Positions 28,020 to 50,298 of a DNA stretch of 56,889 nucleotides are shown here, piece after piece. Source of the stretch: Oscillospiraceae bacterium. GTDB lineage: Bacteria; Bacillota; Clostridia; Oscillospirales; Oscillospiraceae. Under the pieces are notes generated by a model. The model was not told where the DNA came from. It did not search any database and saw only the letters and a program-made list of their open reading frames with translations. Each line of letters starts with the position of its first letter. Position 1 is the first letter of the stretch. The position numbers and the translations under genes were made by a program. Where the stretch lies: positions 1-56,889 of the forward strand of contig CADCQK010000259.1 of the NCBI GenBank assembly GCA_902803575.1, read 5' to 3'.

Positions 28020-29000
28020 ATGATTCGAATTTACGGAACCCTTGGACCCGCCAGTGAGAGCAAGGAAATCCTGAAAGAAATGCTGCGCGCCGGTATGACC
28101 GGCATTCGGCTGAATCTCTCACACAGTATGCTCGCAGAGGCCGCCGCTGATCTGGATGCGCTGCGTGCGGCAGAAAAAGAGACCGGCATCCCTTCGGAGC
28201 TGCTCATCGATCTGCAGGGGCCGGAGGTGCGCATCGGAAAGCTTCCGAAACCGCTGGAGCTGGAAATAGGCAGCAGCGTCAAGTTCGGAGAAGAGATCCC
28301 GGTGCCGCTGGCGGTCCTTCAGGCGCTGCAGCCGGGACAGAAGCTGCTGCTGGATGATGGAAAGCTGCTGCTGGAGATGGTAACGGAAACCGAAGCGAAG
28401 GTGCTGCGCGGCGGAATGCTCGCCAGCCGGAAGAGCCTCGCCATCGAGGGCGTGGATCTGCACCTCCCTGCGCTGACCGACGAAGATCGCGTCAATCTGT
28501 CCCACGCAGCGGAATTTGGCGTGACCGCAGTCATGCAGCCCTTTGTGCGGGGTGCAGAGGATCTGGTAACGCTGAGAAAGGCACTGGACGACGCTGGCGG
28601 GTCCCACATCAAGATTTTTGCCAAGGTTGAGAATCAGTCCGGCGTACAGCATCTGCCGGAGCTGCTCCCTCATTGTGATGAGATCATCATTGCCCGGGGC
28701 GATCTCGGGAATGCCGTGACGCTGCTTCAGCTCCCGGCAGTGCAAAAAGAAATCGCTGCGATCTGCCGGAGGGCCGGGAAGCCGTTTCTGGTGGTGACCC
28801 AGCTACTGGCCAGCATGGAGCACGCGCCGATCCCCACCAGAGCGGAGGTCAGCGACATTTTCAACGCGGTTCAGGATGGCGCGGATTCCCTGATGCTCAC
28901 CGGGGAGACCGCCGTCGGAGCCTATCCCGTGGATTCGATTCGCTGGCTTCGGGATGCCGCAGATGCAGCTGAGGATTACAGAAATGAAAAAACGCGCTGA
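28020..29000 (+). CDS. Pyruvate kinase-like protein, barrel domains only (326 aa, no C-terminal regulatory domain)
   Basis: GTLGPAS, RLNLSHS, DLQGPEVR, KVENQSG, IIARGDLG, VTQLLASM and PTRAEVSDIFNAVQDGADSLMLTGETAVGAYP motifs. Confidence 0.8.
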   Translation: MIRIYGTLGPASESKEILKEMLRAGMTGIRLNLSHSMLAEAAADLDALRAAEKETGIPSELLIDLQGPEVRIGKLPKPLELEIGSSVKFGEEIPVPLAVLQALQPGQKLLLDDGKLLLEMVTETEAKVLRGGMLASRKSLAIEGVDLHLPALTDEDRVNLSHAAEFGVTAVMQPFVRGAEDLVTLRKALDDAGGSHIKIFAKVENQSGVQHLPELLPHCDEIIIARGDLGNAVTLLQLPAVQKEIAAICRRAGKPFLVVTQLLASMEHAPIPTRAEVSDIFNAVQDGADSLMLTGETAVGAYPVDSIRWLRDAADAAEDYRNEKTR

Positions 29001-29016
29001 AATCAGCGCGTTTTTC
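28986..29016. terminator. Bidirectional rho-independent terminator closing the minus-strand block
   Basis: AAAAA-ACGCGCTGA-AA-TCAGCGCGT-TTTT. It overlaps the stop codon at 28998-29000. Confidence 0.85.
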
Positions 29017-29022
29017 GTTTAA

Positions 29023-29874
29023 TCAGATAAGATCCACCGTGGCGATTCTCGGCTCGAAGCAACAGGTAGGACGGACGCAGACGATCCGGACACCGCTGGC
29101 TCTCTGGGGGCCGACCTTCATGAAGGTGGCGATCACGGAGGTGTTGCCGCCGAGACCCAGGGGTCCGATGTTGGCCTCATTCACTCTGCGGGTGATCTCC
29201 TGCTCCATGTCGCTCTGCACGTCGTAGCGGCCATCCACCTGCGCCTGGAGCATCATGGATGCAGCCTCGAAGTGGCTCCGCCCGACGCCCACCGCCAGCG
29301 TGCAGGGAGAGCAGCCCAACTGTGCTACGCCTTCCTTCGCCCAACTGACGATCTCGTCCAGCACCACCTGGGTGTTGTGCTTGTGGAACACCCGATAGGT
29401 CTTGGCACGGATGGCAGGGCCGCCGCCAAACATGAGGATGTGCAGCCGCAGCACGTTTTCCTCGCAGCGGCGCAGGAGGATCGGAGCAGGCTCCACGCCG
29501 GCGCTGTCAGGGTTCAGACCGCCGCTCTGGTCGATCCGGTGGCTGTCATCCCCCATGATCCCCATGGGGCGGCCAGGGAGCTTTCGGAGCCCCTGCCGGA
29601 CACCCTCGCGGATCTCATCCAGCATCCGACCGGTCACGGCGCAGTCCGGGCCAACCTCCAGCACCAGGTGCGGAATGCCGGAATCATCACAAAGAGGGCT
29701 GCGGTTCTGCTCCGCCGCCTCCGCATTGTCCAATACCGTCTGGAGCACCCATCTGGCCTGCTCGTTCTGCTCTTTTTCGATGGCAGCGCGGTAGGCCGCT
29801 TTTTTGTCCGCGCGGAAGGTGGAGCCGGCCTCCACCAGCGTGTCCCGCACGAGACTTACGATGTCATTTTTCAT
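29023..29874 (-). CDS. Fe-S type hydro-lyase, tartrate/fumarate subfamily, alpha subunit
   Basis: SD GGGAGGAG lies 5 nt before the ATG at 29874. The NRSPLCDDSGIPHL motif corresponds to the CQDTG motif of class I fumarases. Eleven-nt overlap with the beta gene. Confidence 0.8.
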   Translation of the reverse strand: MKNDIVSLVRDTLVEAGSTFRADKKAAYRAAIEKEQNEQARWVLQTVLDNAEAAEQNRSPLCDDSGIPHLVLEVGPDCAVTGRMLDEIREGVRQGLRKLPGRPMGIMGDDSHRIDQSGGLNPDSAGVEPAPILLRRCEENVLRLHILMFGGGPAIRAKTYRVFHKHNTQVVLDEIVSWAKEGVAQLGCSPCTLAVGVGRSHFEAASMMLQAQVDGRYDVQSDMEQEITRRVNEANIGPLGLGGNTSVIATFMKVGPQRASGVRIVCVRPTCCFEPRIATVDLI

Positions 29875-30373
29875 AAATGCTCCTCCCATGGGCTGCGCCG
29901 ATGATCGCAGGGTAGCGATCCACCTTGATCAGATGCAGCGCCTCCATGCCAAGCTCCGGGAAGGCCAGGACCTTCCGCTCGGAGGTCTTAGCCTCCAGCA
30001 GTGCCGTCACCGGCGGGATCACGGCATAGACCGCGTTATATTGATCCAGCGCTTGGATGGTCTCCTTGTGCAGCTCCCCTTTTCCCAGATGCAGCTTGAT
30101 GCCGGCTCTGGACAGCGGGGCGATGCTGCTTTCGATCTCCAGCTTGTTGGAGCTGGTGGGGCCGACGCCGGCCGGACTGACGGCGGTGTGGAAAATCACC
30201 TGACCTCTCAGATCCACGCCAAGCTCCCCCACGGTGCCGTCTTCGATCATTTTCAGCACCTTCGGAAGCACGGCGTCTCGTCCGCAGAGGATATAGCCGC
30301 TGATCTCAACGGTATCTCCCACCTGCAGGGCCGCTGCCGCTTCCTCTGAAATCGGTGTTTTCAATGCAATCAT
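29864..30373 (-). CDS. Fe-S type hydro-lyase, tartrate/fumarate subfamily, beta subunit
   Basis: GDTVEISGYILCGRDAVLPK and HLGKGE motifs, typical of the FumA C-terminal / TtdB domain. Confidence 0.8.
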   Translation of the reverse strand: MIALKTPISEEAAAALQVGDTVEISGYILCGRDAVLPKVLKMIEDGTVGELGVDLRGQVIFHTAVSPAGVGPTSSNKLEIESSIAPLSRAGIKLHLGKGELHKETIQALDQYNAVYAVIPPVTALLEAKTSERKVLAFPELGMEALHLIKVDRYPAIIGAAHGRSIYEK

Positions 30374-30394
30374 ATGAAATCCTCTTCATTCGAT

Positions 30395-30427
30395 TTGACT
30401 GCCTGCTCTTGCGGAACAGGCAGTCAA
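30395..30427 (-). other. Perfect 11-bp inverted repeat (intercistronic stem-loop)
   Basis: TTGACTGCCTG-11 nt-CAGGCAGTCAA between the lyase stop and the beta-subunit SD. No U-tract on the transcribed strand. Confidence 0.5.
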
Positions 30428-30435
30428 TTTGTAAG

Positions 30436-31581
30436 TTACTCATTCACGGCAAAGAGCTTTACATAGCCGCTTTCATTCTTGATCACGCCAAAGGCTCTCG
30501 CCCGGTTGTAGATCTTCTTCGCCCAGTTGGTATGGGGTCTGATCTCGTTCATTTTGTTTCCGCCGGAGCCCTTGACCACACCGCCGTTGGTGCCGAGGAT
30601 CTGACAGGCGTCGTCATATTCCTCCCTGGTCACCGCCATCAAAGCGTTGACGAACTTGACGTGGGTGGGATGGATGACCGTTCTGCCCACAAAGCCGTTG
30701 GCCTTGTCGAGGATCAGCTCCCTCAGCAGACCGTCGATCTCGTTGTTCACCAGCGGCTGACGGCGCATGAGGTAGTCCTCGATCCCGTGGTGGGGCAGCT
30801 CCTCAAACATCAGCTCCTTGGGCGCGCGGAAATACTCCCACACCGGCCCGGAGATCACATAGTCATTGTTGCGGCCGCAGATGTTGATGATGTCGCTGAG
30901 ACACTCACGGACGGTCATAATATCATAAAGACTGTAATCCACCCCGCGGCGCACACCGAACACAGAGCTGAAGTCCGTACCGCCCACGCGCACCTGCAGC
31001 ACCAGATCGTGATACTTGTCCAGGATCTTCTTGATGCCGATCAGCTGCTGCAGCCGGCTCTCCTTGTAGGCGACCTCCGGGTCCTCAATGATGGGCATGC
31101 CATAGAGGATCTCTCCGAAGCGATCGTTCAGATCCTGCAGGTAGGCATAGTACTCATAGCCGTTCTCCGCGTTGAATTTTGGAAAATTGACGCCGCAGAG
31201 AGAACGGACCTCCTGCTTGGTCAGCTTTTCCCCAAAGGCTTTGAACTGGGCCAGGTTCCGGATGCGGACGAAGATCAGCGGCACATAGTCCGGGTCCAGC
31301 GTGCCGTTGTCCACAGCCTCGGTGACCGTGGAAAGCAGATGGTGGACATTCTCCATGGCCTCCGGTACTCTCTCCTCCGGGCAGGCGTCCTCGAAGCAGA
31401 GGACCATGGTGGTCAGTCCGGGCATGGCGTGCTCCAGGATCTTCGGTGTAAAATCCTTGTACCCCGGCATATACATTGTGGCGCCCAGACAGTACTGGAG
31501 CAGCTCACGCTCCGTGTACTTGTTAAAATGCTCCGGCTCGACCACGAACTTGAAATCCGGGTTATACATGTGGTGTCTCAT
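30436..31581 (-). CDS. HpcH/HpaI aldolase / citrate lyase beta (CitE)-like TIM-barrel C-C lyase, long form (381 aa)
   Basis: The LCFEDACPEE motif corresponds to the CitE D/E-L-E-D-A metal motif. RVGGTDF and VIHPTHV motifs are also present. SD AAGGAAG lies 9 nt upstream. Confidence 0.65.
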   Translation of the reverse strand: MRHHMYNPDFKFVVEPEHFNKYTERELLQYCLGATMYMPGYKDFTPKILEHAMPGLTTMVLCFEDACPEERVPEAMENVHHLLSTVTEAVDNGTLDPDYVPLIFVRIRNLAQFKAFGEKLTKQEVRSLCGVNFPKFNAENGYEYYAYLQDLNDRFGEILYGMPIIEDPEVAYKESRLQQLIGIKKILDKYHDLVLQVRVGGTDFSSVFGVRRGVDYSLYDIMTVRECLSDIINICGRNNDYVISGPVWEYFRAPKELMFEELPHHGIEDYLMRRQPLVNNEIDGLLRELILDKANGFVGRTVIHPTHVKFVNALMAVTREEYDDACQILGTNGGVVKGSGGNKMNEIRPHTNWAKKIYNRARAFGVIKNESGYVKLFAVNE

Positions 31582-31650
31582 TTGTTGCTGCTTCCTTTCG
31601 TCTTGCCGTACCGGTATCCCTGCCGGTACAGCGGAAATCCATGGCCGGGA

Positions 31651-32553
31651 TCAGACCAGGCTGCCCTTGGGAGACCATACGGCCTCGGGGTAGTATTCGT
31701 CGATCATACGCTTGACCAGGCTGCACTGCTTGGCGCGCTTGCGGGCGTCGTCCTCGGTGCTGTCCCAGGAGTGGGTGGCAGCCACAGAGCCGCCGGTCTT
31801 CAGATAGATCGGAGCGGCAATGCGGATCATCTCCGGCACCTCGTAGTGGCGGATGAAGCCGCCGGTGGACTTGGGGTTTTCGGTGTGGATGTCGATGGGG
31901 CAGTCCACCGCCTGACGCATGGCGGCAAGCATCTGCAGCTGGATGTCACGCACCGGGTTGATGGAATCGGCGCCGATGGTCTCCAGCAGCTTGGCGGAGC
32001 AGGGGTTGCCGTGGCCCGCGTGAGCGGAAACCTTGAAGTGGCAGTCCTCGGGGATCTCGCCTGCCTTGCGCATCTCGTTTAAGATCCAGAGGCATCCCTC
32101 GTCATAGACCAGGAAGCCGCGGGCACCCAGACGGGCGGCGCGCTTCACATCCTCAATGGCGCGAATGATCTGCTCCTGACCGCGAAGACGGTAGCCCATG
32201 CGGACGCCCTCTTCGGTGTGGACGGAGGCGGAAGTGTCCGTGGTGGCGCGGGGACCGATGGCCAGAATCAGATCCGTCTGCCACTGGTGAGCAAGCTCCA
32301 CCATCTTGCCGATCTCCTGATCCGTCAGACGCATGATGCCCTGGGTCTGGGTCACACGGTGCAGATACAGGCCGTAGGAGTCCATGGCCTCCAGCAGCGC
32401 GCGCATGACCTTGGGCCCCTGAATGCCGGGGACCTCAAAGCGGAACTGGCCGCCGTCCTTGAAGCGCTTCTCAGAAGTGGGCAGATCATAAGCGTCCCCG
32501 CCGGGGAGGCCGACAGATTTCAGGAATTCTCTGGTTTGCTCCATGCTGTTCAT
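31651..32553 (-). CDS. Conserved hypothetical enzyme, probable alpha/beta barrel, family unassigned (300 aa)
   Basis: SD GGAGAAAGGA lies 7 nt before the ATG at 32553. The sequence is globular with alternating hydrophobic and charged segments, plus His-rich segments SAHAGHGNP and IDIHTEN. The opposite-strand ORF is low-complexity. Confidence 0.6.
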   Translation of the reverse strand: MNSMEQTREFLKSVGLPGGDAYDLPTSEKRFKDGGQFRFEVPGIQGPKVMRALLEAMDSYGLYLHRVTQTQGIMRLTDQEIGKMVELAHQWQTDLILAIGPRATTDTSASVHTEEGVRMGYRLRGQEQIIRAIEDVKRAARLGARGFLVYDEGCLWILNEMRKAGEIPEDCHFKVSAHAGHGNPCSAKLLETIGADSINPVRDIQLQMLAAMRQAVDCPIDIHTENPKSTGGFIRHYEVPEMIRIAAPIYLKTGGSVAATHSWDSTEDDARKRAKQCSLVKRMIDEYYPEAVWSPKGSLV

Positions 32554-32589: not shown

Positions 32590-33720
32590 TTATCCGTTCA
32601 GATCGTCGATCAGTTCGTCGATGGCCGCCCGGTGATCGAAAATGATTGGCGGCAGCTTCCGGGTCAGTCCCTTGTGGATGCGGCAGTCGATGAAGGCTGC
32701 CTTGCCGCAGTCCTTCAACTGAGAAATGGCCTCAATCAGTTCTTCTTTCGTGGTGACCGCGTGGCCGACGGTCGCGTAGCCGCAGGCCTCCGCCGCTTTG
32801 GTAAAGTCCACAAGATGTCCCGCCGAGGGCTGACCGCCCACGGACTCATGGGCGCCGTTGTTCAGCACCACATGGAGGAAGTTTGGCGCCTGCACCTTGC
32901 TGACCATGGTCATGGCACCCATGTGCATCATGGCGGCGGAGTCGCCGTCCAGCGCCACGACGTGCCGTTCCGGTCTGGAAAGCGCGATCCCCAGGGCAAC
33001 CGAGGAGCAATGTCCCATGCTTCCCACATTCAGGAAATCCCGGGCTTTCGTCTCTCCCCGCTTCTCTCTGAGGAAAAACAGTTCTCTGGTGGCGCGTCCG
33101 GTGGTGGCACTGTAGACGGTAACCTCCGGCATGTGGTCGAGGATCACCTCAATGGCCTCTTCCCTGCTCATGGGATAGACATCATCCACATTGTTGGGCT
33201 TGTCGGGATCCGCCATGACGCCCTTGGGAGCAATGAGCGCGTAGATGCCGCGGGTCTCTTTGCAGTAGGTCACCGCTCGCTCCACGGTCTCGCTGAACTT
33301 CCGGTCGTCATCCTCCAGAATCGTATAAGGGATGTGCATCACATCCAGCAGACCCGGGGTGATCTCCCCCTGGAGCTTGTGCTGGGGGTGGTTTGGCTCT
33401 GTGTTTCCCTGGCCGCGCCAGCCGATCAGCAGCAGCATCGGAACAGCGTAAACGTCCCGGTCTGCCAGGCTGGCCAGGGGGTTAATGGTGTTGCCCATGC
33501 CGCTGTTCTGCATGTAGACCAGCGGGATCTCTTTGGTGGCGAAGTAATGCCCCGCCGCGATGCCCACGGCGTTGCCCTCATTGGCGGCGATCACGTTCCG
33601 ATCGCCGCAGTGGAGAAGCGCATAGTTGCAAAACCCGTTCAGATAGGAGTCCGGCACACCGGTGAAATAGGTCACGCCGTGATCCCGGAGGGTTTGAAAT
33701 ACGTTGTTCTGGTCCAGCAT
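32590..33720 (-). CDS. Single-chain ThDP-dependent decarboxylase of the phosphonopyruvate / sulfopyruvate decarboxylase family
   Basis: N-terminus YFTGVPDSYLNGF, then ANEGNAVGIAAGHY, LVYMQNSGMGNTINPL, LLLIGWRG, and a ThDP motif region ALDGDSAAMMHMGAM...NNGAHESVG. At 376 aa it is a fused alpha+beta form. Confidence 0.75.
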   Translation of the reverse strand: MLDQNNVFQTLRDHGVTYFTGVPDSYLNGFCNYALLHCGDRNVIAANEGNAVGIAAGHYFATKEIPLVYMQNSGMGNTINPLASLADRDVYAVPMLLLIGWRGQGNTEPNHPQHKLQGEITPGLLDVMHIPYTILEDDDRKFSETVERAVTYCKETRGIYALIAPKGVMADPDKPNNVDDVYPMSREEAIEVILDHMPEVTVYSATTGRATRELFFLREKRGETKARDFLNVGSMGHCSSVALGIALSRPERHVVALDGDSAAMMHMGAMTMVSKVQAPNFLHVVLNNGAHESVGGQPSAGHLVDFTKAAEACGYATVGHAVTTKEELIEAISQLKDCGKAAFIDCRIHKGLTRKLPPIIFDHRAAIDELIDDLNG

Positions 33721-34701
33721 TTACTTTTTCTCGCCCCCTACCGAGCCCTTGCCCTTGTAGAGCGTGAAATACTCCGGGCTGTCGCCCTTGGTGATGGCCC
33801 AGGCCTGCTCAAAGGCCTCCACCACGTCCTCCGGCAGCGGGCCGGCCTGGATGGTCTTCATGTTCTGCTGCAGATGGTTCAGCTTGGAGGCGCCGATGAG
33901 GATCGCGTCCCCCCGGTCGCCGTTCAGCATCGAATGATAGGCCAGCCAGCGGTAGGTGGCCTCGATGCTGGTAATGCCGTGCTTTGCCGCAGCGGCTTTG
34001 ATGAGATCCACCGCGTCAAAGAAGCTCTTCTTCCAGTAGCGTCCCTGATAGTTGGGCCGATGGGTGAACCGGCCGTCGGTGGGCGCGTCCGTATAGGAGC
34101 CGTACTTGCCTGTCAGCAGACCGCCGCACATGGGGTTATAGGCATAAAACCGCATGCCGAAATGGTTCAGACAGTCGTTGAGCTCCGCCTCGGCTCTGCG
34201 GGTCAGCGGATTGTAAACACCCTCGAAGACCGTGGGCTTCACCCAGCCGTGCCTGTCGCAGATGTGCCACACGTCGGTGACCATCCAGGCCGGGAAATTG
34301 GAAATGCCCAGTTCCTTGAATTTGCCCTGATCATGGAGATCCGCCATGGCCTCCAGAACGGAGATCACGGGCGTGGCGGGGTCCGGGAAATGCAGGAACA
34401 TGATGTCCGCGCAGTCCAGCTTCATCCGCTCCAGGCTCTCGTTGACCTGCATATAGGCCGCTTCCGCGTCCAGCTTGCCGGTGATGCGGGGATTCACCTT
34501 TCCCGCGATCTTGAAGGGCCGGTTCAGGTTCGGCAGCACCTCGCCCAGCAGCCGCTCGCAATTGCCCTCGTTATAAACATAGGCAGTGTCCAGCTCATCG
34601 TAACCCGCATCCAGAAATGCGTTGATAAAAGACTCCACATCCGGGGAAAACACGGATTCCCCGAAGGTCATGGTCCCAAGAATCAGTTTTACGTTGTTCA
34701 T
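33721..34701 (-). CDS. Aldo/keto reductase
   Basis: LGTMTFG, LDTAYVYNEG, HFPD and a LIGASKLNHLQQN-type C-terminus. The stop TAA abuts the next ATG. Confidence 0.85.
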   Translation of the reverse strand: MNNVKLILGTMTFGESVFSPDVESFINAFLDAGYDELDTAYVYNEGNCERLLGEVLPNLNRPFKIAGKVNPRITGKLDAEAAYMQVNESLERMKLDCADIMFLHFPDPATPVISVLEAMADLHDQGKFKELGISNFPAWMVTDVWHICDRHGWVKPTVFEGVYNPLTRRAEAELNDCLNHFGMRFYAYNPMCGGLLTGKYGSYTDAPTDGRFTHRPNYQGRYWKKSFFDAVDLIKAAAAKHGITSIEATYRWLAYHSMLNGDRGDAILIGASKLNHLQQNMKTIQAGPLPEDVVEAFEQAWAITKGDSPEYFTLYKGKGSVGGEKK

Positions 34702-34715
34702 GCCATCACTCCTCC

Positions 34716-42917: not shown

Positions 42918-43154
42918 TTATTTTGCCTGCAGGGTCTCGATCATGCGGGCCATCGCGTCCACAGAATTGAAGTTCTCAGGCACGATCTCATCGATAGAGA
43001 TCTCAACGCCGAATTTTTCGCTCAGCGTCGTGATTAGGAGCATCAGCTCAAAGGAGTCGATGTAACCGCCCTCGATGATGTTGGTGATACCATCCAGGTT
43101 CTTGGTGGGTTTTACGTCATGCAGGATCTGCAAAACCTGTTCACGAGTCGTCAT
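42918..43154 (-). CDS. Standalone acyl/peptidyl carrier protein, DltC-like
   Basis: 78 aa. Phosphopantetheine site GGYIDSFELMLLI (Ser34). The overall pattern resembles D-alanyl carrier proteins. Confidence 0.8.
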   Translation of the reverse strand: MTTREQVLQILHDVKPTKNLDGITNIIEGGYIDSFELMLLITTLSEKFGVEISIDEIVPENFNSVDAMARMIETLQAK

Positions 43155-43170: not shown

Positions 43171-44457
43171 TCAAATTGTATTTCTTAAACGATTGGTGGG
43201 ATAAGCCATCTCACTGGCAGCGACACGACGCCGCTCGCCTTTTTCATGATACCCCTCGGTCAGGAACACGATGAAAAACAGCATATAGAAGGTTCCGTGG
43301 GTATGAGGCGTGAAGAACGACAGACCAATCAGGAAGGCCGCCAGCCAGAAGGACCAGCCGCGCAGATCGATCAGGCACTTCAGATAGAACAAATAGGACA
43401 GCAGCGTGCCGACAATGCCGAATTTGTACATGGTCGCGTTGAAGCCGGTCATGTGGAAATCCAGACCGGAGTAGTGGTCGGAAATGCCGAACACAAGCTC
43501 CCATCCGTGCATCTGGCGGATAAACTCATAGCCGCCCTCAACGCGTCCCGAGACGGCGTTCTTGTAGTCAGAGCCGCTGGAGAAGATGCGGATGACGCTC
43601 CGGTGGAAGAAATCGACCTTGAAAAACATAAAGACCAGCACGGCAGTGATCAGAAGCAGAATCGAAAGATTGCGAGGCTGCAGCAGCTTCGGCAGCAGCA
43701 GCTTGCCGTATCTCCGCTTCTCGCTGTTTCTGGACAGATACACCAGCCAGAGCAGCACCGTCGCGATGATGGCCATGCCAGAGGTGGAGAGGATCATGCC
43801 AGCGGACAGGAAAATTGCCTTCCGTTTTGCCCGGAACCCCGCTCCGGAATGGTAGATTTCATACACCAGCGGCGCGAACAGATAGATGAACATGTGAGAC
43901 GGCTCCAGGAAGAAAGCCGAAGGCCGGTAGAAGGAGATCGGTCGGCCGGTGATGCTGTATCGTCCGGTATTGGCAAGCTTGACCCACTGGTTGGCACTTT
44001 TCAGCAGCAGCGAGGTCGGCACCATCTTCAGATGGAAATGCAGCAGATAGTAGCAGAAATACTGCAAAATGATGCCCACACAGGCTGCCATTGAAATGAC
44101 CGTAGCGACTTTGATCACCTTTTTTGCCTCCAGACAACCGGACAAAAACGCCATCGTGAACACGAAATAAACCAGCACGAGGCCCATTTCGCTTGCGCTG
44201 GTGCCGTGGTCAATGATTTTATAAACTTGAAACAAATACAGTCCGCCGAACACATTCAGGCATCTGGACGACAAAACAGGACGGCCCGCAAATAAAGCCA
44301 AAACCAGAACCATGGCAAGTATGATAACGGTAACGCCGCCGTTGATCACACCCTTATAGTTCTGGAGGATCGGCGCGATCGCCACAGCGATCACAGCCAG
44401 TGTGGCTAAATTCAATACACGGGCCTGACTTCTGCCCCGCGTGATGCTTATCTTCAT
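43171..44457 (-). CDS. Wzy-type oligosaccharide repeat-unit polymerase / O-antigen ligase-like membrane protein
   Basis: About 10-12 TM segments, with a periplasmic loop RPSAFFLEPSH typical of polymerases. Confidence 0.65.
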   Translation of the reverse strand: MKISITRGRSQARVLNLATLAVIAVAIAPILQNYKGVINGGVTVIILAMVLVLALFAGRPVLSSRCLNVFGGLYLFQVYKIIDHGTSASEMGLVLVYFVFTMAFLSGCLEAKKVIKVATVISMAACVGIILQYFCYYLLHFHLKMVPTSLLLKSANQWVKLANTGRYSITGRPISFYRPSAFFLEPSHMFIYLFAPLVYEIYHSGAGFRAKRKAIFLSAGMILSTSGMAIIATVLLWLVYLSRNSEKRRYGKLLLPKLLQPRNLSILLLITAVLVFMFFKVDFFHRSVIRIFSSGSDYKNAVSGRVEGGYEFIRQMHGWELVFGISDHYSGLDFHMTGFNATMYKFGIVGTLLSYLFYLKCLIDLRGWSFWLAAFLIGLSFFTPHTHGTFYMLFFIVFLTEGYHEKGERRRVAASEMAYPTNRLRNTI

Positions 44458-44541: not shown

Positions 44542-45105
44542 TCAGGATCCGTGCCGTTGATCGAACCGTTCCCATTCCGCAGCAGCCACCTCCGGGGGCA
44601 TCTGCTGTTTTTTGAACGCGACCGTCTGGTTCTTGCTCATTTTCCGAAGCGCCATGAACATATCAAAGCGCCCGGTGGGCTTGGCGGGAATGCCGGAGGC
44701 AATGGAGTTTTCGGGGATATCCGACGCCACGACGCTTCCGGCGGAGATGATGCAGTTGCGGTTGATTCTCACATTCGGCATGATGATGACGTTCATGGAG
44801 ATATAGACGTTGTCCATCAGCTCGATGCACCCGAGCTTTTCCCGATAACCGAAGTCCGCGTCGGGATCGCAGCCCTTCAGGAAGTTGTTGATCATGTCGT
44901 GGGGAGACAGGTGGGCGCTTTTGTGCACGACCACGTTGTCATGGACCCGGATCAGCTTCGCGTGCAGCGGCAGCAGCCAGGGACCCCACTTGACATTCTC
45001 GCCCATGTGGTCGAAGAGATTGTGCTTGCGAATATAGTCCGCACGCTTGCGGGCGGAACGGCACAGCAGCAGACGGATGCTGTGATAGAGTCTTGCAGCT
45101 CTCAC
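44542..45105 (-). CDS. Hexapeptide-repeat (LbH) acetyl/acyltransferase
   Basis: GTG start 7 nt after GGAGG. Hexapeptide run IELMDNVYISMNVIIMPNVRINRNCIISAGSVVASDIPENSIASGIPAK. Confidence 0.8.
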   Translation of the reverse strand: MRAARLYHSIRLLLCRSARKRADYIRKHNLFDHMGENVKWGPWLLPLHAKLIRVHDNVVVHKSAHLSPHDMINNFLKGCDPDADFGYREKLGCIELMDNVYISMNVIIMPNVRINRNCIISAGSVVASDIPENSIASGIPAKPTGRFDMFMALRKMSKNQTVAFKKQQMPPEVAAAEWERFDQRHGS

Positions 45106-45148: not shown

Positions 45149-45172
45149 GATGCTTCTCAACGTCGAAGCATC
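45149..45172 (-). other. Perfect 8-bp inverted repeat (intercistronic stem-loop)
   Basis: GATGCTTC-8 nt-GAAGCATC, overlapping the stop codon of the sugar transferase gene. Confidence 0.4.
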
Positions 45173-45875
45173 AGGAATGGGGCTCCGGCATTTCCTCCGG
45201 TCTCGGCACGGTGCCGGCTTCCCACTGGGCCTTTCGGTAATCCCAGAAAAGCTCCTGCTTGCCGGCCTCGATGATGTCCGCGTGCTTGAACACCTTGGCC
45301 ACCGTCTGAAACAGGATCTTCACATCCAGCCAGAAGGAGACATTCTCAACATAGTAGAGATCGTATTCAAATCGCTTGTCCCAGCTGGCGGCGTTTCTGC
45401 CGTTGACCTGGGCGAGTCCCGTCAATCCCGGCCGGACCGCATGGCGGCGGTGCTCCGCAGGGGTGTAATACGCCAGAGCCTTTTTGTTCCAGGGTCTGGG
45501 GCCCACAAAGCTCATGTCCCCTTTCAGGATGTTCCAGAGCTCCGGAATCTCGTCCAGGCTGGTGGCGCGCAGCATCCGTCCGAACTTGGTCATGCGCTGG
45601 GCGCTGGGCAGCAAGACACCGTTCTCGTCCACATCGTTGGTCATGGAGCGGAACTTGCAGAGGCCGAACAGCTTTTCCTTGCCGGTCTTGGGGTCGATTT
45701 TGCCGGGACGCTGGTGAACAAAAATGACCGGTGAACCGAGATTCACCTTCACCAGGATCGCCACGATGGCGTACAGCCAGCAGAACAGGATCATTGCAAC
45801 AACAGACAGGACAATGTCGAATAACCGCTTAACGACATTGTTATAAAACTTATGCCTGGGTTCGAGTGTTTCCAT
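45171..45875 (-). CDS. Small monotopic phosphoglycosyl transferase (bacterial sugar transferase, PglC/EpsL/WbaP C-terminal type)
   Basis: KRLFDIVLS, SPVIFVHQRPG, KFRSM, DEIPELWNILKGDMSFVGPRP and GLTGLAQVNGR motifs. ATG at 45875 preferred, with TTG at 45902 possible. Confidence 0.85.
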   Translation of the reverse strand: METLEPRHKFYNNVVKRLFDIVLSVVAMILFCWLYAIVAILVKVNLGSPVIFVHQRPGKIDPKTGKEKLFGLCKFRSMTNDVDENGVLLPSAQRMTKFGRMLRATSLDEIPELWNILKGDMSFVGPRPWNKKALAYYTPAEHRRHAVRPGLTGLAQVNGRNAASWDKRFEYDLYYVENVSFWLDVKILFQTVAKVFKHADIIEAGKQELFWDYRKAQWEAGTVPRPEEMPEPHS

Positions 45876-45898
45876 CACTGATTGACTCCCTTTTATAC

Positions 45899-47218
45899 TC
45901 AAGAATCAAAGAATCTCGTCGTGTCAAACGGCGCAAACAGCAGGCTCCGGCCGTCGGTGTCGTCCACCCGGACGTGCGCCTGGATAAAGTGGATCGTGTC
46001 GGCCATTTCCTCCAGGTCGTTGGCGCGGATCTTGAAGGAGATGACCCGCTGCTGGGTGGTGCCGCGGTCCGGGATGTTCTTCCCCACATAGACGTAGGGG
46101 CTGATATCCAGAACATTTTCCCGCCCGCTGACCGCGCTGTAATCCACGTTGCCGACTTCGCCTGCATGGGCATACATCACATAGGTCGCCATCTGCTCTT
46201 TCAGTTCCGGATTGTCCTTGGACAGCGAGTCTCCCATGGAGCCCGTGAGCGAATGGTGGATCATCATCTTCATGTGATTGATCCCGTTGCAGCGGCTCAG
46301 CAGCTTCCAGTCGTTGCCGCCATTGAGACGGAGGCCCATTTCAAAGGCGACGATCCGGTCATCCGTTGCGATGAACTGGAAGCCGGCGATGCCGTTTTTC
46401 ACGCCGATGTCCCGCAGCAGCGACTTGATCTTTTCATCGATCGTATCCCGGTAGCGCCTATAAAACCGCGACGGCGTGATGGCGATGTCACAGAGGGCAG
46501 CGTATTTCGTTCCCTCTCTGGAGAGGTACTTGTCGTTGATGATCGAAAGGCTGATCTCGCCGTCGGCAATGGTATAGATCGCTGTGATCTCCATGCCGGT
46601 CACATACTCCTCCACCACAACGGTGTGGGTTTCAGAGTTCTTTTCCGCAAAGGCCAGAGCATCGTCCAGCTGCTCCTCGGAGTCGCAGATCGTGATGCCG
46701 ATGCGTCCGCCGTAATCCGCCGGCTTGACGATGACCGGGTAGCGGATCGCGCTCCGGTCCAGTTCCGCCGCATGACCGTTTTTGCAGTACTCGGTGGGGA
46801 CCGGCACACCATGCTTTTCGCAGAGGTGCTTGAACGAGCGCTTGTTGCGCGTCAGCTCCACCTGCTCTGGGGTGACATAGAACGGTGTCCCCAGCAGCTG
46901 GGAGAGCCTGGCGGCATAGAACACCTTGCCCTCACTGTAGCCGGAGAACACACCGCTGACGCCCGCCTCGCGGCACTTGTGAACCAGCGTGTCCATGTCG
47001 GAATAGTCGATGTCCCACGCCTCATCAGCGATGGACTTCGCCGGGAGCTTCGAGTAGTCGCTCCCACGCTCAGTGACAATGGTATACACGCCCATCTCCC
47101 GCGCCTGGCGCACGATGTTCATCAGATTCGTCTCGCCGCCGATGATCAGCAGCTTCTTTCCTTTGGCCTGTTCAAACATGTATCTTTTTCCTTTATCCGA
47201 CTGACAGCGGTCTGTCAT
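45899..47218 (-). CDS. ATP-grasp ligase (439 aa)
   Basis: Pre-ATP-grasp KKLLIIGG, followed by KHGVPVP, YPVIVKPADYGG, VVVEEYVTG and FQFI...FEMGLRLNGG. ATGA overlap with the upstream gene. An alternative ATG at 47179 is possible. Confidence 0.75.
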   Translation of the reverse strand: MTDRCQSDKGKRYMFEQAKGKKLLIIGGETNLMNIVRQAREMGVYTIVTERGSDYSKLPAKSIADEAWDIDYSDMDTLVHKCREAGVSGVFSGYSEGKVFYAARLSQLLGTPFYVTPEQVELTRNKRSFKHLCEKHGVPVPTEYCKNGHAAELDRSAIRYPVIVKPADYGGRIGITICDSEEQLDDALAFAEKNSETHTVVVEEYVTGMEITAIYTIADGEISLSIINDKYLSREGTKYAALCDIAITPSRFYRRYRDTIDEKIKSLLRDIGVKNGIAGFQFIATDDRIVAFEMGLRLNGGNDWKLLSRCNGINHMKMMIHHSLTGSMGDSLSKDNPELKEQMATYVMYAHAGEVGNVDYSAVSGRENVLDISPYVYVGKNIPDRGTTQQRVISFKIRANDLEEMADTIHFIQAHVRVDDTDGRSLLFAPFDTTRFFDS

Positions 47219-48177
47219 TTTTTCAGGATCTTGACCTCATTGTATTTCATCATGTAGATCCCCTCATCGTAATCGCCGATGCGCTTTTCGTTGGCCCGGC
47301 CCTGCAGATTATTCAGGATCAGCTTCATGTGGTCGCATCCGGCCTCATAGGCGTGGGGATAACCGCCGCCGAAACGGGGGTTGACTTCGGAGATGTAGTA
47401 GACGCCGTCCACTTCGAAGATGTCAATGTCGATCTGGCCCCGGTAGCCGGCCTCCAGAACGAATTTCTCAATGAGGGCAAACAGCGCAGGGTCCTTGAAG
47501 CTGACCGCCTTGTCCGTCTCACCGGCCCGCATCAGCAGCTTTTTCTTCGTGAAGATCGAGACGACCTCCCCGCTGATCATGTCGATGTAGACGTCCGCGC
47601 CGATCTCCTGCCCGTCCAGAAACTCCTGGATCATCAAATCATTACGCTGCCGGTAGAGCAGATCGATGGTCTCCCGGTCATAGACCTTGGAGATGCTGAT
47701 GGAGGCAGAACCCCGATAGGGCTTGACAAAGACGGGATAAGACACCAAACCGGACTCCACAGCCCGGTAAAACGCCTCCGGCTCTCTCCAGGATCTGGCG
47801 CAGTGATAACCGTGGTCCGTGAGCCACCGGAACATCTGCATCTTGTCCAGAGACATCTCGCAAAGCTCATAGGAGCTGCCGATCACGGTGGTGCCGACAG
47901 CTTCGAACAGAGACGCGTTTTTCGCCAGCAGACTCAGCTCCGGGTCGATCAGACTCAAAACGCCGTCGATCTGCTCCTTGCGGCAGATGTCCAGAATCAC
48001 GTCAATATAGCCCGGAGCCGTGATGGGCGGAACAATATAGTGCTTGTCGGCATCATAGATTGCAGGCCCGAAGGGACTTGCATCCGTCGCTACAATCGTA
48101 CCGACGCCGGCAAAGGCGGCTTTGAAATACTGGACAACTTTATCTCTGGTGCCAGCGGCCAGAATCAGAAAATTCAT
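47215..48177 (-). CDS. ATP-grasp ligase (320 aa, carbamoyl-phosphate-synthase L-chain-like)
   Basis: MNFLILAAG, YPVFVKPYRGSASI, MIQEFLDGQEIGADVY and ISEVNPRFGGGYP motifs. Confidence 0.8.
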   Translation of the reverse strand: MNFLILAAGTRDKVVQYFKAAFAGVGTIVATDASPFGPAIYDADKHYIVPPITAPGYIDVILDICRKEQIDGVLSLIDPELSLLAKNASLFEAVGTTVIGSSYELCEMSLDKMQMFRWLTDHGYHCARSWREPEAFYRAVESGLVSYPVFVKPYRGSASISISKVYDRETIDLLYRQRNDLMIQEFLDGQEIGADVYIDMISGEVVSIFTKKKLLMRAGETDKAVSFKDPALFALIEKFVLEAGYRGQIDIDIFEVDGVYYISEVNPRFGGGYPHAYEAGCDHMKLILNNLQGRANEKRIGDYDEGIYMMKYNEVKILKK

Positions 48178-48189
48178 TTATCTGTTTCC

Positions 48190-49500
48190 TCACTGAAAGC
48201 ATCTGTGAATGATATCGATCACGACATCCTGCTCGGCCGGCGTCATCTTGTTGTCGCTGGGCAGGCACAGGCCCCGTCTGAAGATGTCCGCGCCCACGTC
48301 CACGATCTTGCCGGAGATATAGGCGTTGGTTTCGCCGCGGCCGTTTCCTTCCGCAGTCACGAATGCATTCGTGCGGTAGATCGGCTGCATATGCATGGGC
48401 TTCCAGATCGGACGGCCCTCGGCGTTGAAGGCTGCCAGCGCATCCAGAATCTCCTGAGGGGAACTCTTGCCGGGCTCTGTCTGATAGAGATAATCCCGCT
48501 CGCCGCGCACCATGGGCGCCATGGCTGCCTCATCGATGATCATGCAGCTGAGCCAGAAGTTCGGGATGCACTTGTCCGGATCCCAGGGATTCATCTGTAC
48601 CGGAAGATCCTTCAGCCCTTCAGCATAGCGCTCCCAGACGGCCCGCTTCTGTGCGATGTGCGCGTCCAGATAAGGGGTCTGCCCTCTGACCACGCCGGCA
48701 ATGATATTGCTCATGCGGTAGTTATAGCCGACTTCCTCATGCTGATACCAGGGGGCATCTTCGCGGCTCTGGGTGGACCACTTTCTCACCTTATTGGCAT
48801 CCTCCAGACTGTCGGTCAGGAACATGCCGCCGGCGCTGCCGGTAATGATCTTGTTGCCGTTGAAGGAGATGCAGTTGTAATCTCCGAGGGCGCCGGTCTC
48901 CACCCCCTGGCCGTTCAGCTTATATTTGGCGCCGAGACTCTCGGCCGCGTCTTCGATGATCAGTGCGCCGTGCTTTTCGGCGATGGCCTTGATCTCCTGC
49001 ATCTTCGCGGGGGTGCCATAAAGGTGCGCCACCACGATGAGTCTGACCTCCGGGTAAAGCTCAAAGGCCTTTTCCAGCGCCTCGGGGCTCATGTTCCAGC
49101 TGTCATACTCCGTATCGATGAAAACAGCCTCGCCGTCTTCATAGGCCACCGGATTGACGCTGGCGTCGAAGGTGCAGTCAGAACAGAAGACCCGGTGCCC
49201 GCGGAGGGTACCCTCGTTGGGTCTTGCCTGGCCGTAGAGCTTTTCCCCTGCCAGCTTCGTGGCAAGATGCAGCGCCGCAGTTCCAGCGGAGAGCGCCACA
49301 GCGTACTTGCAGCCGATGAAGGCCGCCAGCTGCTGCTCAACCTCGTTGATGTTCGCGCCCACGGTGCTCACCCAGTTGGTGCGGATGGCGTCATCCACCC
49401 ACTTCTGCTCCTCACCGTGCATGGTCGGCGTGGCAAGCCAGACTTTGGATTGGAAAGGCACGATGCCGGAAAACCTGGGGTCTGTTAAAAATCGATTCAT
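48190..49500 (-). CDS. DegT/DnrJ/EryC1/StrS family PLP-dependent sugar aminotransferase
   Basis: SAGTAALHLA, IIEDAAESLGA, SFNGNKIITGSAGGM (PLP lysine) and GYNYRMSNI motifs. ATG at 49500 preferred over the track start at 49563. Confidence 0.85.
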   Translation of the reverse strand: MNRFLTDPRFSGIVPFQSKVWLATPTMHGEEQKWVDDAIRTNWVSTVGANINEVEQQLAAFIGCKYAVALSAGTAALHLATKLAGEKLYGQARPNEGTLRGHRVFCSDCTFDASVNPVAYEDGEAVFIDTEYDSWNMSPEALEKAFELYPEVRLIVVAHLYGTPAKMQEIKAIAEKHGALIIEDAAESLGAKYKLNGQGVETGALGDYNCISFNGNKIITGSAGGMFLTDSLEDANKVRKWSTQSREDAPWYQHEEVGYNYRMSNIIAGVVRGQTPYLDAHIAQKRAVWERYAEGLKDLPVQMNPWDPDKCIPNFWLSCMIIDEAAMAPMVRGERDYLYQTEPGKSSPQEILDALAAFNAEGRPIWKPMHMQPIYRTNAFVTAEGNGRGETNAYISGKIVDVGADIFRRGLCLPSDNKMTPAEQDVVIDIIHRCFQ

Positions 49501-49635
49501 GTTACATACATCCCAACGATCGTAGTTTTTGTGTGAAATCTGCGTCTGCGGATCGAGCCGCATGCCGCGAAAGAGAAGTCTATTCCGGCCGCACGGTGAT
49601 TCCGCGCAGGCACTAACAAATCATCCGCTCCATCC

Positions 49636-50298
49636 TCAGCGGTTTTCCACCACAGAGAGGAGTTCGGCGTGGATCTCATCGATCCCCCGCATTTCGCCCG
49701 CCCGGCTGCAAAGGACGGTTTTCCAGCCCAGCCGGTTGGCACAGTATTCCGCGGCCTTCCGGGAGCGGTCCAGATAGGCGAGGTTGCTTTCATGGATATC
49801 TTTTCTGCTCTCGTCACCGTGATAGCGCCCGGTCATCAGCTTCTGGCTGACCTCCGGCTCCACCTTCAGATAGAACACCAGATCCGGCGCAGGGATCCCC
49901 AGCAGCCGATATTCAAACTCGAACAGCCAGTCAAGATAGCCGTCCCATTGCTCCTCCGGAAGCTTGGAGCACTGGTGGATGGCGTTGGAGGTCGTATAGC
50001 GGTCGGCAACGATGATGCCGCCTTTCTGATAGAAGCCGCCCCAGTCTTTCTTGAACGAGGCGTAGCGGTCCACCGCATAGAAGGAAGACGCGGCGTAGGC
50101 ATTCACATCCCCGGGGTCGCTGCCGAAGGCGCCGCTCAGATACATCTTGATCAGCGCCGAGGAATCGCTTGCGTAATCCGGGAAAGACACGGCCCGTACT
50201 GCGGTATCCCGGCTTTGGAGTGCCTCGTAAAGAAGCTTTGCCTGTGTTGCCTTTCCACTGCCGTCCAAGCCTTCGATCACGATCAGTTTCCCGCTCAT
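49636..50298 (-). CDS. tmk: Thymidylate kinase
   Basis: LIVIEGLDGSGKATQ P-loop, VSFPDY and DRY motifs. Confidence 0.85.
   Translation of the reverse strand: MSGKLIVIEGLDGSGKATQAKLLYEALQSRDTAVRAVSFPDYASDSSALIKMYLSGAFGSDPGDVNAYAASSFYAVDRYASFKKDWGGFYQKGGIIVADRYTTSNAIHQCSKLPEEQWDGYLDWLFEFEYRLLGIPAPDLVFYLKVEPEVSQKLMTGRYHGDESRKDIHESNLAYLDRSRKAAEYCANRLGWKTVLCSRAGEMRGIDEIHAELLSVVENR

Follow-up and report, generated by a model that had tools for sequence, protein, structure and literature searches.

Some bacterial glycan loci carry their own pathway to a nonsugar substituent. In the O-antigen of Vibrio cholerae O1, perosamine is N-acylated with 3-deoxy-L-glycero-tetronate (2,4-dihydroxybutanoate), which is the task of five dedicated tetronate genes, VC0248–VC0252 (PMC3441752), and tricarboxylic acid (TCA) cycle-like enzymes acting on oxaloacetate analogues have been documented for phosphonates (PMC8942020). 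The DNA analyzed here, hereafter the window, is a 56,889-nucleotide stretch of an Oscillospiraceae bacterium (GenBank assembly GCA_902803575.1, contig CADCQK010000259.1) in which a block of 19 genes joins glycan-assembly genes to a conserved set of metabolic enzymes. The most likely role of this enzyme set is to supply a cell-surface polymer with an unusual acidic side group. More specifically, we give an even chance to a new pathway that leads to a hydroxy-carboxylic acid, N-acylated onto an amino sugar of the exported polymer. A glycan locus with its own substituent pathway is thus of a known kind, but this pathway, with its core enzyme family and modular tailoring, has no earlier description: searches of the literature for the gene combination, for the family PF15617 and for the decarboxylase without phosphoenolpyruvate (PEP) mutase returned none.

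A metabolic cassette within variable surface-glycan loci

Families were assigned by Pfam and NCBIfam scans of all 19 gene products (table 1). A scan of other genomes, seeded with the second of two PrpD paralogs (PrpD2), limited to one genome per species and taking in 10-kb flanks, returned 27 loci. In 20 of these 27 species-level genomes the same order is kept: PrpD2, an AKR7-type aldo-keto reductase (AKR), a thiamine diphosphate (ThDP)-dependent decarboxylase, a family-less protein of about 300 residues (unk300), a PF15617 lyase, and the beta and alpha subunits of an Fe–S hydro-lyase (FumB and FumA), which argues that the arrangement is not due to chance. The hosts are Lachnospiraceae, Oscillospiraceae, and other Clostridia from the rumen and the human, rabbit, and mouse gut, and include the isolates Sporofaciens musculi, Acetatifactor muris, and Ruminococcus sp. 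zg-924. The flanking genes are always polysaccharide genes but differ from locus to locus (Wzx, Wzy_C, EpsG, Acyl_transf_3, GT2, GT4, phosphoglycosyl transferase [PGT], DegT, and also asparagine-synthase-like amidotransferases); one flank is a full nonulosonic-acid set with NeuB (L006) and another an RmlA-RmlB-Tmk-RmlC-like-DegT set (L027). The metabolic half is therefore a portable cassette, present in at least 20 Clostridia species and always within variable surface-glycan loci. The original prediction, made from the window alone, had left open whether metabolic and glycan genes are linked elsewhere; they are, in 20 related genomes and in further metagenome variants, always in polysaccharide loci. 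Its picture of a single 21-kb block did not hold, as what travels is a four-gene core with swappable tailoring genes.

The variants that define this core came from look-ups with unk300 homologues. Four human gut loci (L116–L119) encode a PglF-like dehydratase, DegT, ATP-grasp, PGT, ATP-grasp, PrpD, unk300, Ldh_2, PF15617, FumB, FumA, GT4s, Wzy_C, and Wzx, with neither decarboxylase nor AKR; L116 accordingly holds the complete logic, from dehydratase through aminotransferase, ligases and PGT to cassette, in one row. Decarboxylase and AKR are also missing from L120, where a D-2-hydroxyacid dehydrogenase (2-Hacid_dh) is found near unk300. On the 12-kb contigs of L121 and L122, a TagO-like transferase and a LytR-CpsA-Psr (LCP) gene are followed by AKR, decarboxylase, unk300, PF15617, FumB, and FumA, without PrpD. 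Since unk300, PF15617, FumB, and FumA are all that the variant loci keep, these four constitute the invariant core across the cassette variants compared. The variable partner of the core is always an enzyme of 2-oxo acids, either a 2-oxo-acid reductase, of which there are two kinds, or the ThDP decarboxylase together with an aldehyde reductase. This exchange of decarboxylase and AKR for Ldh_2 or 2-Hacid_dh suggests that the core product is a 2-oxo acid, and that the decarboxylase receives its substrate from the core and not from a PEP mutase. We infer that the core would deliver a 2-oxo acid, which is the strongest functional conclusion available from these comparisons.

The PrpD paralogs are accessory to the cassette. 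PrpD1 co-occurs with a DctM-type tripartite ATP-independent periplasmic (TRAP) permease in five loci (L004, L005, L014, L024, and L028) and with a LysR regulator in three of them (L014, L024, and L028), a pairing that hints at import of a precursor acid in some strains; in the window PrpD1 has neither permease nor regulator, and a lipoprotein gene stands in their stead. PrpD2 orthologues 70–73% identical to that of the window occur without the remaining cassette in L018 and L007 (8605–11335), the latter directly after an ATP-grasp gene and beside nonulosonic-acid genes only.

The most conserved cassette gene is unk300. Its protein is 84–94% identical across species, yet third codon positions approach saturation; in comparisons of the window with loci of 39–44% GC, protein identity is 84–92% and third-codon identity 27–43%. 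The GC content of the cassette follows that of its host, from 39% to 63%. Saturated third positions and host-tracking GC together point to purifying selection, and recent horizontal transfer was rejected as the source of the high identity. Matches in a protein collection with gut and rumen data are numerous (about 5,400–5,700 clusters at 90% identity for each of unk300 and PF15617), and no match among the best 120 for either falls below 81% identity to the protein of the window. Cassette copies also occur in a Victivallales metagenome-assembled genome (MAG; L004, 81–92% protein identity) and an Erysipelotrichaceae MAG (L011, 70–92%), with PrpD2 the least identical protein in both (73% and 70%, respectively); both assignments lie far outside the Clostridia, and these copies represent either real lateral transfer or mis-binned contigs.

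Neither unk300 nor the other core enzymes fall into a characterized group. The AlphaFold model of unk300 is a TIM barrel (predicted local distance difference test [pLDDT] 82) with only generic neighbors in a fold search, namely class II aldolases and lyases of the isocitrate lyase/PEP mutase superfamily (template modeling score ~0.45–0.5), including a weak likeness of the predicted structure to methylisocitrate lyases. Sequence and profile searches of unk300 against solved structures gave nothing significant, and its match to Peptidase_U32 (PF01136; 13 bits, E 0.057) lies below the cut-off of 22.4, although some distant family members carry that domain; no cysteine is conserved across the family alignment. 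The neighboring lyase, which the original prediction had called CitE-like, could be refined to PF15617 (375 bits), CitE and RipC models matching only weakly. Its top fold matches are malyl-CoA lyases (5ugr, 6kkh, and 4l7z), from a poor model (pLDDT 54). The Fe–S hydro-lyase scores below all NCBIfam equivalogs (fumarate hydratase 101 versus 276, TtdA 51 versus 365, and TIGR00722 97.5 versus 100.65), and the PrpD paralogs reach 23–30 bits against 2-methylcitrate dehydratase models with cut-offs of 458–950. By these scores the hydro-lyase subunits and both PrpD paralogs are classed as new subfamilies, and not as fumarase, tartrate dehydratase, or 2-methylcitrate dehydratase.

The unk300 family extends well beyond the gut, to about 1,000 clusters at 50% identity. 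Common neighbors in 80 environmental loci were creatininase-like hydrolases (22), PrpD-family proteins (21), Ldh_2 (16), aldehyde:ferredoxin oxidoreductase (16), malic enzyme (12), IclR regulators (11), and FumA/FumB (10). The shared neighbors suggest that the links of unk300 with Fe–S hydro-lyases, PrpD, and Ldh_2 are old and that its chemistry is malate-, oxaloacetate-, or fumarate-like. PF15617, the decarboxylase, and the AKR were added only in the Clostridia glycan cassette. An operon of Ldh_2, unk300, malic enzyme, FumA, and FumB recurs among the environmental loci (L046, L062, L081, L091, and L107), adjoining creatininase-like hydrolase, nitroreductase, cupin, aldehyde:ferredoxin oxidoreductase, and IclR genes, and resembles an uncharacterized anaerobic catabolic pathway into malate and fumarate.

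More distant homologues appear in other settings. In large-genome bacteria (L032, 9291–16616; L033; L034) unk300 homologues (P0340 and P0366) lie directly after a ComB-family 2-phosphosulfolactate phosphatase gene and are followed by a MurL-like epimerase/ligase and two Mur ligases, with PGT and MurJ adjoining. These loci look like systems for a peptide-bearing acid on a lipid-linked exported glycan, a second and independent link of the family to surface polymers. Another homologue stands between hydantoinase subunits in an actinomycete, and one that is 34% identical and annotated as a U32 family peptidase is encoded on an Enterobacter chuandaensis plasmid (L125; NZ_CP097174.1, 81015–81953). 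The plasmid neighbors (phosphotransferase, NAD(P) oxidoreductase, aminotransferase, iron-containing redox enzymes, major facilitator superfamily exporter, and nucleotidyltransferase) resemble a small-molecule biosynthetic cluster.

Proposed pathway and the class of the acid

We propose that the core builds a 2-oxo acid with a second anionic group, similar to oxaloacetate or 2-oxoglutarate, by C–C bond formation or cleavage together with dehydration or hydration, following the synthase, (de)hydratase, and lyase logic of the glyoxylate and methylcitrate cycles. The PF15617 protein would be a C–C bond-forming synthase or aldolase, as its malyl-CoA lyase fold matches suggest, the Fe–S enzyme, aided by PrpD, a (de)hydratase, and unk300 possibly a second lyase or aldolase. 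The ThDP enzyme would then remove C1 of the 2-oxo acid and the AKR turn the acid-aldehyde into an omega-hydroxy carboxylic acid, candidate products being 3-hydroxypropanoate, 4-hydroxybutanoate, or 2,4-dihydroxybutanoate analogues. In the loci where the gene swap is observed, Ldh_2 or the D-2-hydroxyacid dehydrogenase would yield a 2-hydroxy acid instead. The acid would be activated by the ATP-grasp ligases, or by an ANL adenylating enzyme with carrier protein and hexapeptide acyltransferase, or by both, and joined, most likely as an amide, to an amino sugar supplied by the DegT aminotransferase. The PglC-type PGT would load the sugar on undecaprenyl phosphate, the Wzx-like protein would flip it, and the neighboring LCP enzyme, a candidate for attaching the polymer to peptidoglycan, would probably fix the product to the wall. 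One chemically coherent route of this type would run from pyruvate and glyoxylate through 4-hydroxy-2-oxoglutarate and malate semialdehyde to 2,4-dihydroxybutanoate, but this specific product is a guess with little chance of being the right one. The original prediction had also envisaged a metabolic acid ligated to an exported amino sugar; co-localization and ligases partly support this, while a pyruvate kinase (PK)-like gene drops out of the pathway, the PrpD paralogs become accessory, and the Wzy polymerase becomes a doubtful assignment.

The tailoring enzymes bear on the nature of the acid. The decarboxylase belongs to the phosphonopyruvate/sulfopyruvate decarboxylase family, matches RhiEF (9iz3), and has the ThDP motif GDS-X26-NN; the RhiEF review gives no substrate-binding residues. 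The AKR aligns over its full length (residues 4–312) with mammalian AKR7A enzymes, presumably the succinic-semialdehyde reductase group. It keeps the arginine of the RYW motif, and a Lys-rich tail replaces the C-terminal arginine; we take both arginines, from the AKR7A1 literature, to be carboxylate-binding residues. The AKR is predicted to reduce an acid-aldehyde to an omega-hydroxy acid. Ldh_2 enzymes act on oxaloacetate, sulfopyruvate, and 2-oxoglutarate. Together, a decarboxylase family for beta-phosphono and beta-sulfo pyruvates, Ldh_2, and an AKR7 enzyme for carboxy-aldehydes point to a second anionic group on the 2-oxo acid.

The PrpD paralogs would carry out accessory dehydratase, decarboxylase, or isomerase steps on polycarboxylates. 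The best structural matches of PrpD2 are an IRG1 homologue, an iminodisuccinate (IDS) epimerase, and a cis-aconitate decarboxylase (7bra, 2hp0, and 6r6u), not 2-methylcitrate dehydratase, and in an alignment it keeps seven of the eight positions that we take to form the cis-aconitate decarboxylase active site. Starting from cis-aconitate or another common metabolite, PrpD2 may itself produce an acid fit for ligation. A plain methylcitrate cycle was considered for the cassette and rejected on the failure of the equivalog models; PrpB and PrpC are both absent from the window.

The position of the ligases argues that the final product bears a carboxylate, since they stand immediately beside the cassette in many loci. 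In 8 of about 20 loci the gene directly upstream of PrpD2 encodes a ligase, either an ANL enzyme or an ATP-grasp enzyme of the L-amino-acid-ligase type, and nearly all full-length cassette loci have ATP-grasp or ANL and carrier protein modules. ATP-grasp ligase 2 of the window is related to the L-amino-acid-ligase-type enzymes of most related loci, which carry a LAL_C2 domain and are 19–32% identical to it. ANL orthologues adjoin the cassette in L014 and L021; in the latter, carrier protein, MBOAT, and ANL genes are interleaved with the cassette genes. The hexapeptide acyltransferase accompanies the ANL enzyme and carrier protein in L014 and L015. Overall, the evidence favours a carboxylate over a phosphonate or sulfonate as the chemical class of the product, and phosphonate or sulfonate chemistry is a minority possibility.

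A phosphonate decoration would have phosphonopyruvate as the 2-oxo acid, derived from a PEP mutase elsewhere or from one of the two TIM-barrel proteins of the cassette as a noncanonical mutase; decarboxylase and AKR would then give 2-hydroxyethylphosphonate, Ldh_2 or 2-Hacid_dh phosphonolactate, and the Fe–S hydro-lyase phosphonoacrylate. We consider this unlikely, although the decarboxylase scores 397.6 bits on the phosphonopyruvate decarboxylase equivalog TIGR03297 (cut-off 312.5) and phosphonate synthesis is known to branch early into decarboxylation or reduction of phosphonopyruvate. A predicted Paenibacillus larvae cluster that combines PEP mutase, malate dehydrogenase, fumarase, and ATP-grasp (PMC8942020) is mirrored by the unk300, Ldh_2, Fe–S hydro-lyase, and ATP-grasp genes of L116. 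Mutase and decarboxylase genes are normally adjacent, yet more than 25 cassette loci have no PEP mutase within 10 kb. Six-frame translations of the window and of loci L001–L030 lack the motif EDKxxxxxNS, and tblastn with the Mytilus enzyme (100% identical to PDB 1M1B) found nothing better than E = 0.12 in 692 kb of window and earlier-fetched loci, or E = 2.5 in the variant loci L116–L123 (L124 and L125 lay outside this search). Nor does unk300 have profile similarity to PEP mutase (hhalign probability 0.3%). PF15617 falls in the pyruvate-kinase-like TIM-barrel clan that also holds PEP mutase, which speaks for the phosphonate. Family scans gave no cytidylyltransferase or LicD-type phosphonate transfer genes. 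To our knowledge, the phosphonoacetaldehyde reductases are Fe-dependent alcohol dehydrogenases and not AKR7 enzymes, and 2-hydroxyethylphosphonate lacks the carboxylate that ATP-grasp and ANL ligases need. Sulfopyruvate as the intermediate, with a ComDE-like decarboxylase, the variant Ldh_2 as ComC, and unk300 in place of the TIM-barrel phosphosulfolactate synthase ComA, would yield isethionate- or sulfolactate-type groups and is very unlikely in our view. Ldh_2 is the ComC family, the distant unk300 homologues of L032–L034 follow a ComB-family gene, and the alpha and beta models of sulfopyruvate decarboxylase match the window enzyme too, though with scores below cut-off (102 versus 221.5 and 84 versus 148), the best score of the enzyme being on the phosphonopyruvate model. 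The window has no homologue of ComA (PF02679), ComB (PF04029), or ComC (PF02615), the gene swap calls for a core that reaches the 2-oxo acid with no dehydrogenase, something impossible by the ComA/B/C route, the Fe–S hydro-lyase and PF15617 have no role in that route, and isethionate again offers the ligases no carboxylate. It is also improbable that the core is a new route to a beta-anionic pyruvate, for example phosphonopyruvate or sulfopyruvate, with C–P or C–S bond formation independent of PEP mutase and ComA, decorating surface glycans of abundant gut and rumen Clostridia. Genome mining for phosphonates is probably misled by the "phosphonopyruvate decarboxylase" annotations of these genomes.

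Returning to the carboxylic acid, its acceptor may be questioned as well. The lipid-linked sugar with its acid could be passed to a surface protein, in an O-glycosylation of S-layer or flagellin type, or to a lipid anchor, with the polytopic membrane protein of the window as transferase. The window encodes a PGT without further glycosyltransferase, its Wzy is unrecognizable, several S-layer homology (SLH)-domain proteins are encoded nearby, and ATP-grasp genes of the "carbamoyl-phosphate-synthase-like" type occur in clostridial flagellin glycan loci. An LCP gene nevertheless adjoins the cassette here and in L121 and L122, the latter two with the TagO-like transferase, and most related loci have the full Wzx, Wzy_C/EpsG, and glycosyltransferase set typical of polymers, so that we rate a nonwall acceptor as less probable, but the most serious of the rivals; within the window, it is only the adjacent LCP gene that points to a wall polymer rather than a surface protein. 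As another alternative, the metabolic genes could be a common operon of organic acid catabolism or central metabolism that happens to adjoin glycan genes, which would agree with the catabolic-looking clusters of distant unk300 relatives from sediment and bioreactor metagenomes, whose neighbors include TRAP and ATP-binding cassette transporters besides the Ldh_2, malic enzyme, FumA/FumB, PrpD, creatininase-like hydrolase, aldehyde:ferredoxin oxidoreductase, and IclR genes counted above. It is extremely unlikely, given that the cassette lies inside a glycan locus in every Clostridia locus examined though the glycan genes differ, shares tight spacing and translational coupling with them, and contains the PF15617, decarboxylase, and AKR genes absent from the environmental clusters. 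Several points weigh against a carboxylic acid on an exported wall polymer. The decarboxylase sequence passes the NCBI trusted cut-off for phosphonopyruvate decarboxylases, sulfopyruvate in coenzyme M synthesis is handled by the same two families, that of the decarboxylase and Ldh_2, and the PEP mutase search covered the window and fetched loci, not whole genomes. No core enzyme has a characterized close relative, and the PF15617 model is poor, its C-terminal third being unreliable. Moreover, the window has no sugar 4,6-dehydratase, further glycosyltransferase, or verifiable Wzy, which leaves its glycan side incomplete or unusual.

Locus architecture and glycan-side genes

The gene map combines the open reading frame (ORF) listing with the gene calls of the source contig, a 147-kb metagenome scaffold (ENA ERZ1049550 scaffold_238). 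Both agree with the 19 consecutive minus-strand genes behind tmk that had been claimed, running from 49563 down to 29023 with a spacing of −11 (overlap) to 133 nt. The claimed translational coupling is likewise present in the sequence: the AKR stop abuts the decarboxylase start (33721/33720), the Fe–S hydro-lyase beta and alpha genes overlap by 11 nt (29864–29874), and Shine–Dalgarno boxes sit on the preceding stop codons at ~34711–34718 (TAAGGAGG) and ~48188–48192 (TGAGGAA). A strong bidirectional terminator was also confirmed, its G+C-rich 13-bp stem enclosed by an A-tract and a T-tract and its strength the highest in a 20-kb scan; a consensus scan found several short terminator-like stems within the block, none of them near this one in strength. 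A promoter-like site upstream of tmk is a possible start of the transcription unit. The best reading of the block is one operon-like surface-glycan locus, in a Clostridia bacterium of gut or rumen, of which the acid cassette forms the promoter-distal (3′) part.

Table 1. Features of the locus, in order of position
Feature	Position	Strand	Assignment and remarks
FtsW/RodA	25197–26396	+	Neighbor of block
LytR-CpsA-Psr (LCP) ligase	26427–27968	+	PF03816; adjoins block
Pyruvate kinase (PK)-like protein	28020–29000	+	Barrel only (A and B domains, 326 aa); TIGR01064 317.6 bits versus 306.4
Bidirectional intrinsic terminator	28987–29016	.	Closes block and the convergent + strand FtsW, LCP, and PK-like genes
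Fe–S hydro-lyase alpha subunit (FumA)	29023–29874	−	Core; PF05681 165 bits
Fe–S hydro-lyase beta subunit (FumB)	29864–30373	−	Core; PF05683 76 bits
PF15617 C–C bond lyase, CitE/malyl-CoA-lyase-like	30436–31581	−	Core; 375 bits
unk300, family-less TIM-barrel protein, distantly U32-like	31651–32553	−	Core; most conserved cassette gene
ThDP-dependent 2-oxo-acid decarboxylase	32590–33720	−	Phosphonopyruvate/sulfopyruvate decarboxylase family; TIGR03297
AKR7-type aldo-keto reductase	33721–34701	−	267 bits, E 2e-78 to AKR7A2/A3/A1
PrpD paralog 1 (PrpD1)	34716–36050	−	Accessory; MmgE/PrpD family
Lipoprotein	36103–37848	−	LVTGC lipobox; no Pfam or NCBIfam family match
Acyl-ACP thioesterase	37982–38728	−	PF01643 and PF20791
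PrpD paralog 2 (PrpD2)	38736–40079	−	IRG1/cis-aconitate-decarboxylase/IDS-epimerase type; PF03972 and PF19305
Wzx-like multi-span transporter	40109–41380	−	NF050818 HfsF E 1e-8; MatE E 3e-4; ~10 hydrophobic segments
ANL adenylating enzyme	41416–42885	−	PF00501 and PF13193
Carrier protein, DltC-like	42918–43154	−	IDS serine motif; PF00550; NF003464 34.9 bits, below cut-off 68
Polytopic membrane protein	43171–44457	−	At least 7 hydrophobic segments; called Wzy earlier
Left-handed beta-helix (hexapeptide) acyltransferase	44542–45105	−	PF00132; weak NeuD/PglB/VioB match
Small PglC-type phosphoglycosyl transferase (PGT)	45171–45875	−	PF02397 205 bits
ATP-grasp ligase 2	45899–47179	−	Several ATP-grasp Pfam matches
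ATP-grasp ligase 1	47215–48177	−	PylC-like N-terminal domain; PF21360, PF02655; NF009406 506 bits versus cut-off 271
DegT/DnrJ/EryC1 sugar aminotransferase, LegC-like	48190–49563	−	PF01041 228 bits
Thymidylate kinase (tmk)	49636–50298	−	PF02223; head of block
Promoter-like site TTGACG-17-TAAAAT	50401–50429	−	Upstream of tmk; consensus match only, 10/12

The earlier domain calls were essentially right for DegT, the two ATP-grasp ligases, PGT, Hexapep, and AMP-binding with PP-binding, and Pfam and NCBIfam also agree with those for acyl-ACP thioesterase, two MmgE/PrpD proteins, Aldo_ket_red, the ThDP enzyme, Fumerase, and Fumerase_C. The DegT protein reaches 275 bits on TIGR04181, below the cut-off of 420. 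The PGT has one N-terminal hydrophobic segment, LDE and PRP motifs, and a 239-bit match to TIGR03025 over the catalytic domain. The former Wzy assignment found no such backing, the protein having no Pfam or NCBIfam match even at E ≤ 1 and no profile similarity to the Wzy_C proteins of L019, L027, and L116 (hhalign probability 0.5%); a divergent polymerase is possible. The Wzx call, which draws on weak NCBIfam matches without a Pfam match, is weak but reasonable. The lipoprotein occurs elsewhere only in the closest relative, L015 (90% identical). Among the 19 genes no glycosyltransferase family besides the PGT was detected, while related loci do have glycosyltransferases, and family scans of the window found neither a sugar 4,6-dehydratase nor, for a complete Dlt set, MBOAT or DltD.

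The PK-like gene, which the original prediction had counted as part of the pathway, lacks the C-terminal regulatory domain and lies directly after the FtsW and LCP genes, with which it is likely co-transcribed. It was rejected as a pathway supplier, being on the convergent + strand and present in none of the 27 related loci.

A tmk 71% identical to that of the window lies within the dTDP-sugar operon of a cassette-bearing locus (L027, 2888–3550; Ruminococcus sp. zg-924), between RmlB and an RmlC-like gene. A PGT using a dTDP-sugar would release dTMP, which a locus-linked thymidylate kinase could recycle. An inventory of phosphonate clusters mentions PEP mutase clusters flanked by thymidylate kinase (PMC8942020).

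Elsewhere the window encodes housekeeping functions (YceG, SLH-anchored subtilase, IspD, Nth, TrmO, TsaE/TsaB, and FtsW), and an Rfam scan of the window found no riboswitch and a single tRNA. Two large SLH-domain surface proteins are encoded near the locus on the + strand, an S8 subtilase with three SLH repeats (10276–13872) and an NlpC/P60, SH3, and SLH protein (21087–23258). Secondary cell-wall polymers are the ligands of SLH domains, so both proteins could be anchored by the polymer made here.

Significance and comparison with known systems

The cassette product is probably a widespread, immunologically exposed and so far undescribed trait of commensal Clostridia surfaces, and the cassette is present in cultured mouse-gut isolates. 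With unk300, an orphan and extremely conserved TIM-barrel family gains a pathway position, ahead of a 2-oxo acid, that can be tested. Compounds that at present come from engineered pathways would have a natural source in the cassette, should the product be a hydroxy acid of the 3-hydroxypropanoate or 2,4-dihydroxybutanoate type; should it be a phosphonate or sulfonate, the cassette would reveal new bond-forming chemistry.

With D-alanylation by the Dlt system the locus shares an ANL enzyme and a DltC-like carrier protein, and in L021 an MBOAT gene lies between these and the cassette. The window, in contrast, has no MBOAT or DltD, its carrier protein scores below the DltC cut-off, and the acyl group is probably not D-alanine. 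The methylcitrate and glyoxylate cycles resemble the proposed succession of synthase, (de)hydratase, and lyase ending in a 2-oxo acid, and a PrpD-family protein is common to both, but a different protein family would be used at every step and the context is biosynthetic, within glycan loci. Coenzyme M synthesis (ComA–ComE) places members of the same two families at the same pathway position, ComDE in the window and ComC in variant loci; it differs in its ComA, ComB, and ComC enzymes, which the window does not have, whereas the cassette has extra core enzymes and hosts that are not methanogens or alkene oxidizers. Phosphonate glycans, such as Bacteroides fragilis polysaccharide B and the phosphonoglycans, offer a parallel in that a decarboxylase passing TIGR03297 stands in a polysaccharide locus. 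Unlike those systems, the one described here has no PEP mutase, aminoethylphosphonate transaminase, Fe-dependent alcohol dehydrogenase, nucleotidyl activation, or LicD-type genes.

The glycan side resembles the bacillosamine-type pathway of Campylobacter N-glycosylation (PglF dehydratase, PglE aminotransferase, PglD acetyltransferase, and PglC transferase), with which it shares a small PglC-type PGT, DegT, and a hexapeptide acyltransferase, L116 adding a PglF-like dehydratase. Here ATP-grasp ligases and an acid pathway replace or supplement N-acetylation, and the window itself has no dehydratase. The acid-forming enzymes of V. cholerae O1 are unrelated to those of the cassette; reduction there takes place on a carrier-bound acyl group and here probably on free acids, and most related cassette loci use ATP-grasp ligases instead. 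The carrier protein, AMP-forming ligase, and hexapeptide acyltransferase among the rfbK–O products of V. cholerae have counterparts encoded between 41416 and 45105 in the window. In V. cholerae O1, and probably here, a glycan locus carries its own pathway to a short hydroxy acid, which there is, and here would be, placed on the amino group of a 4-amino sugar.

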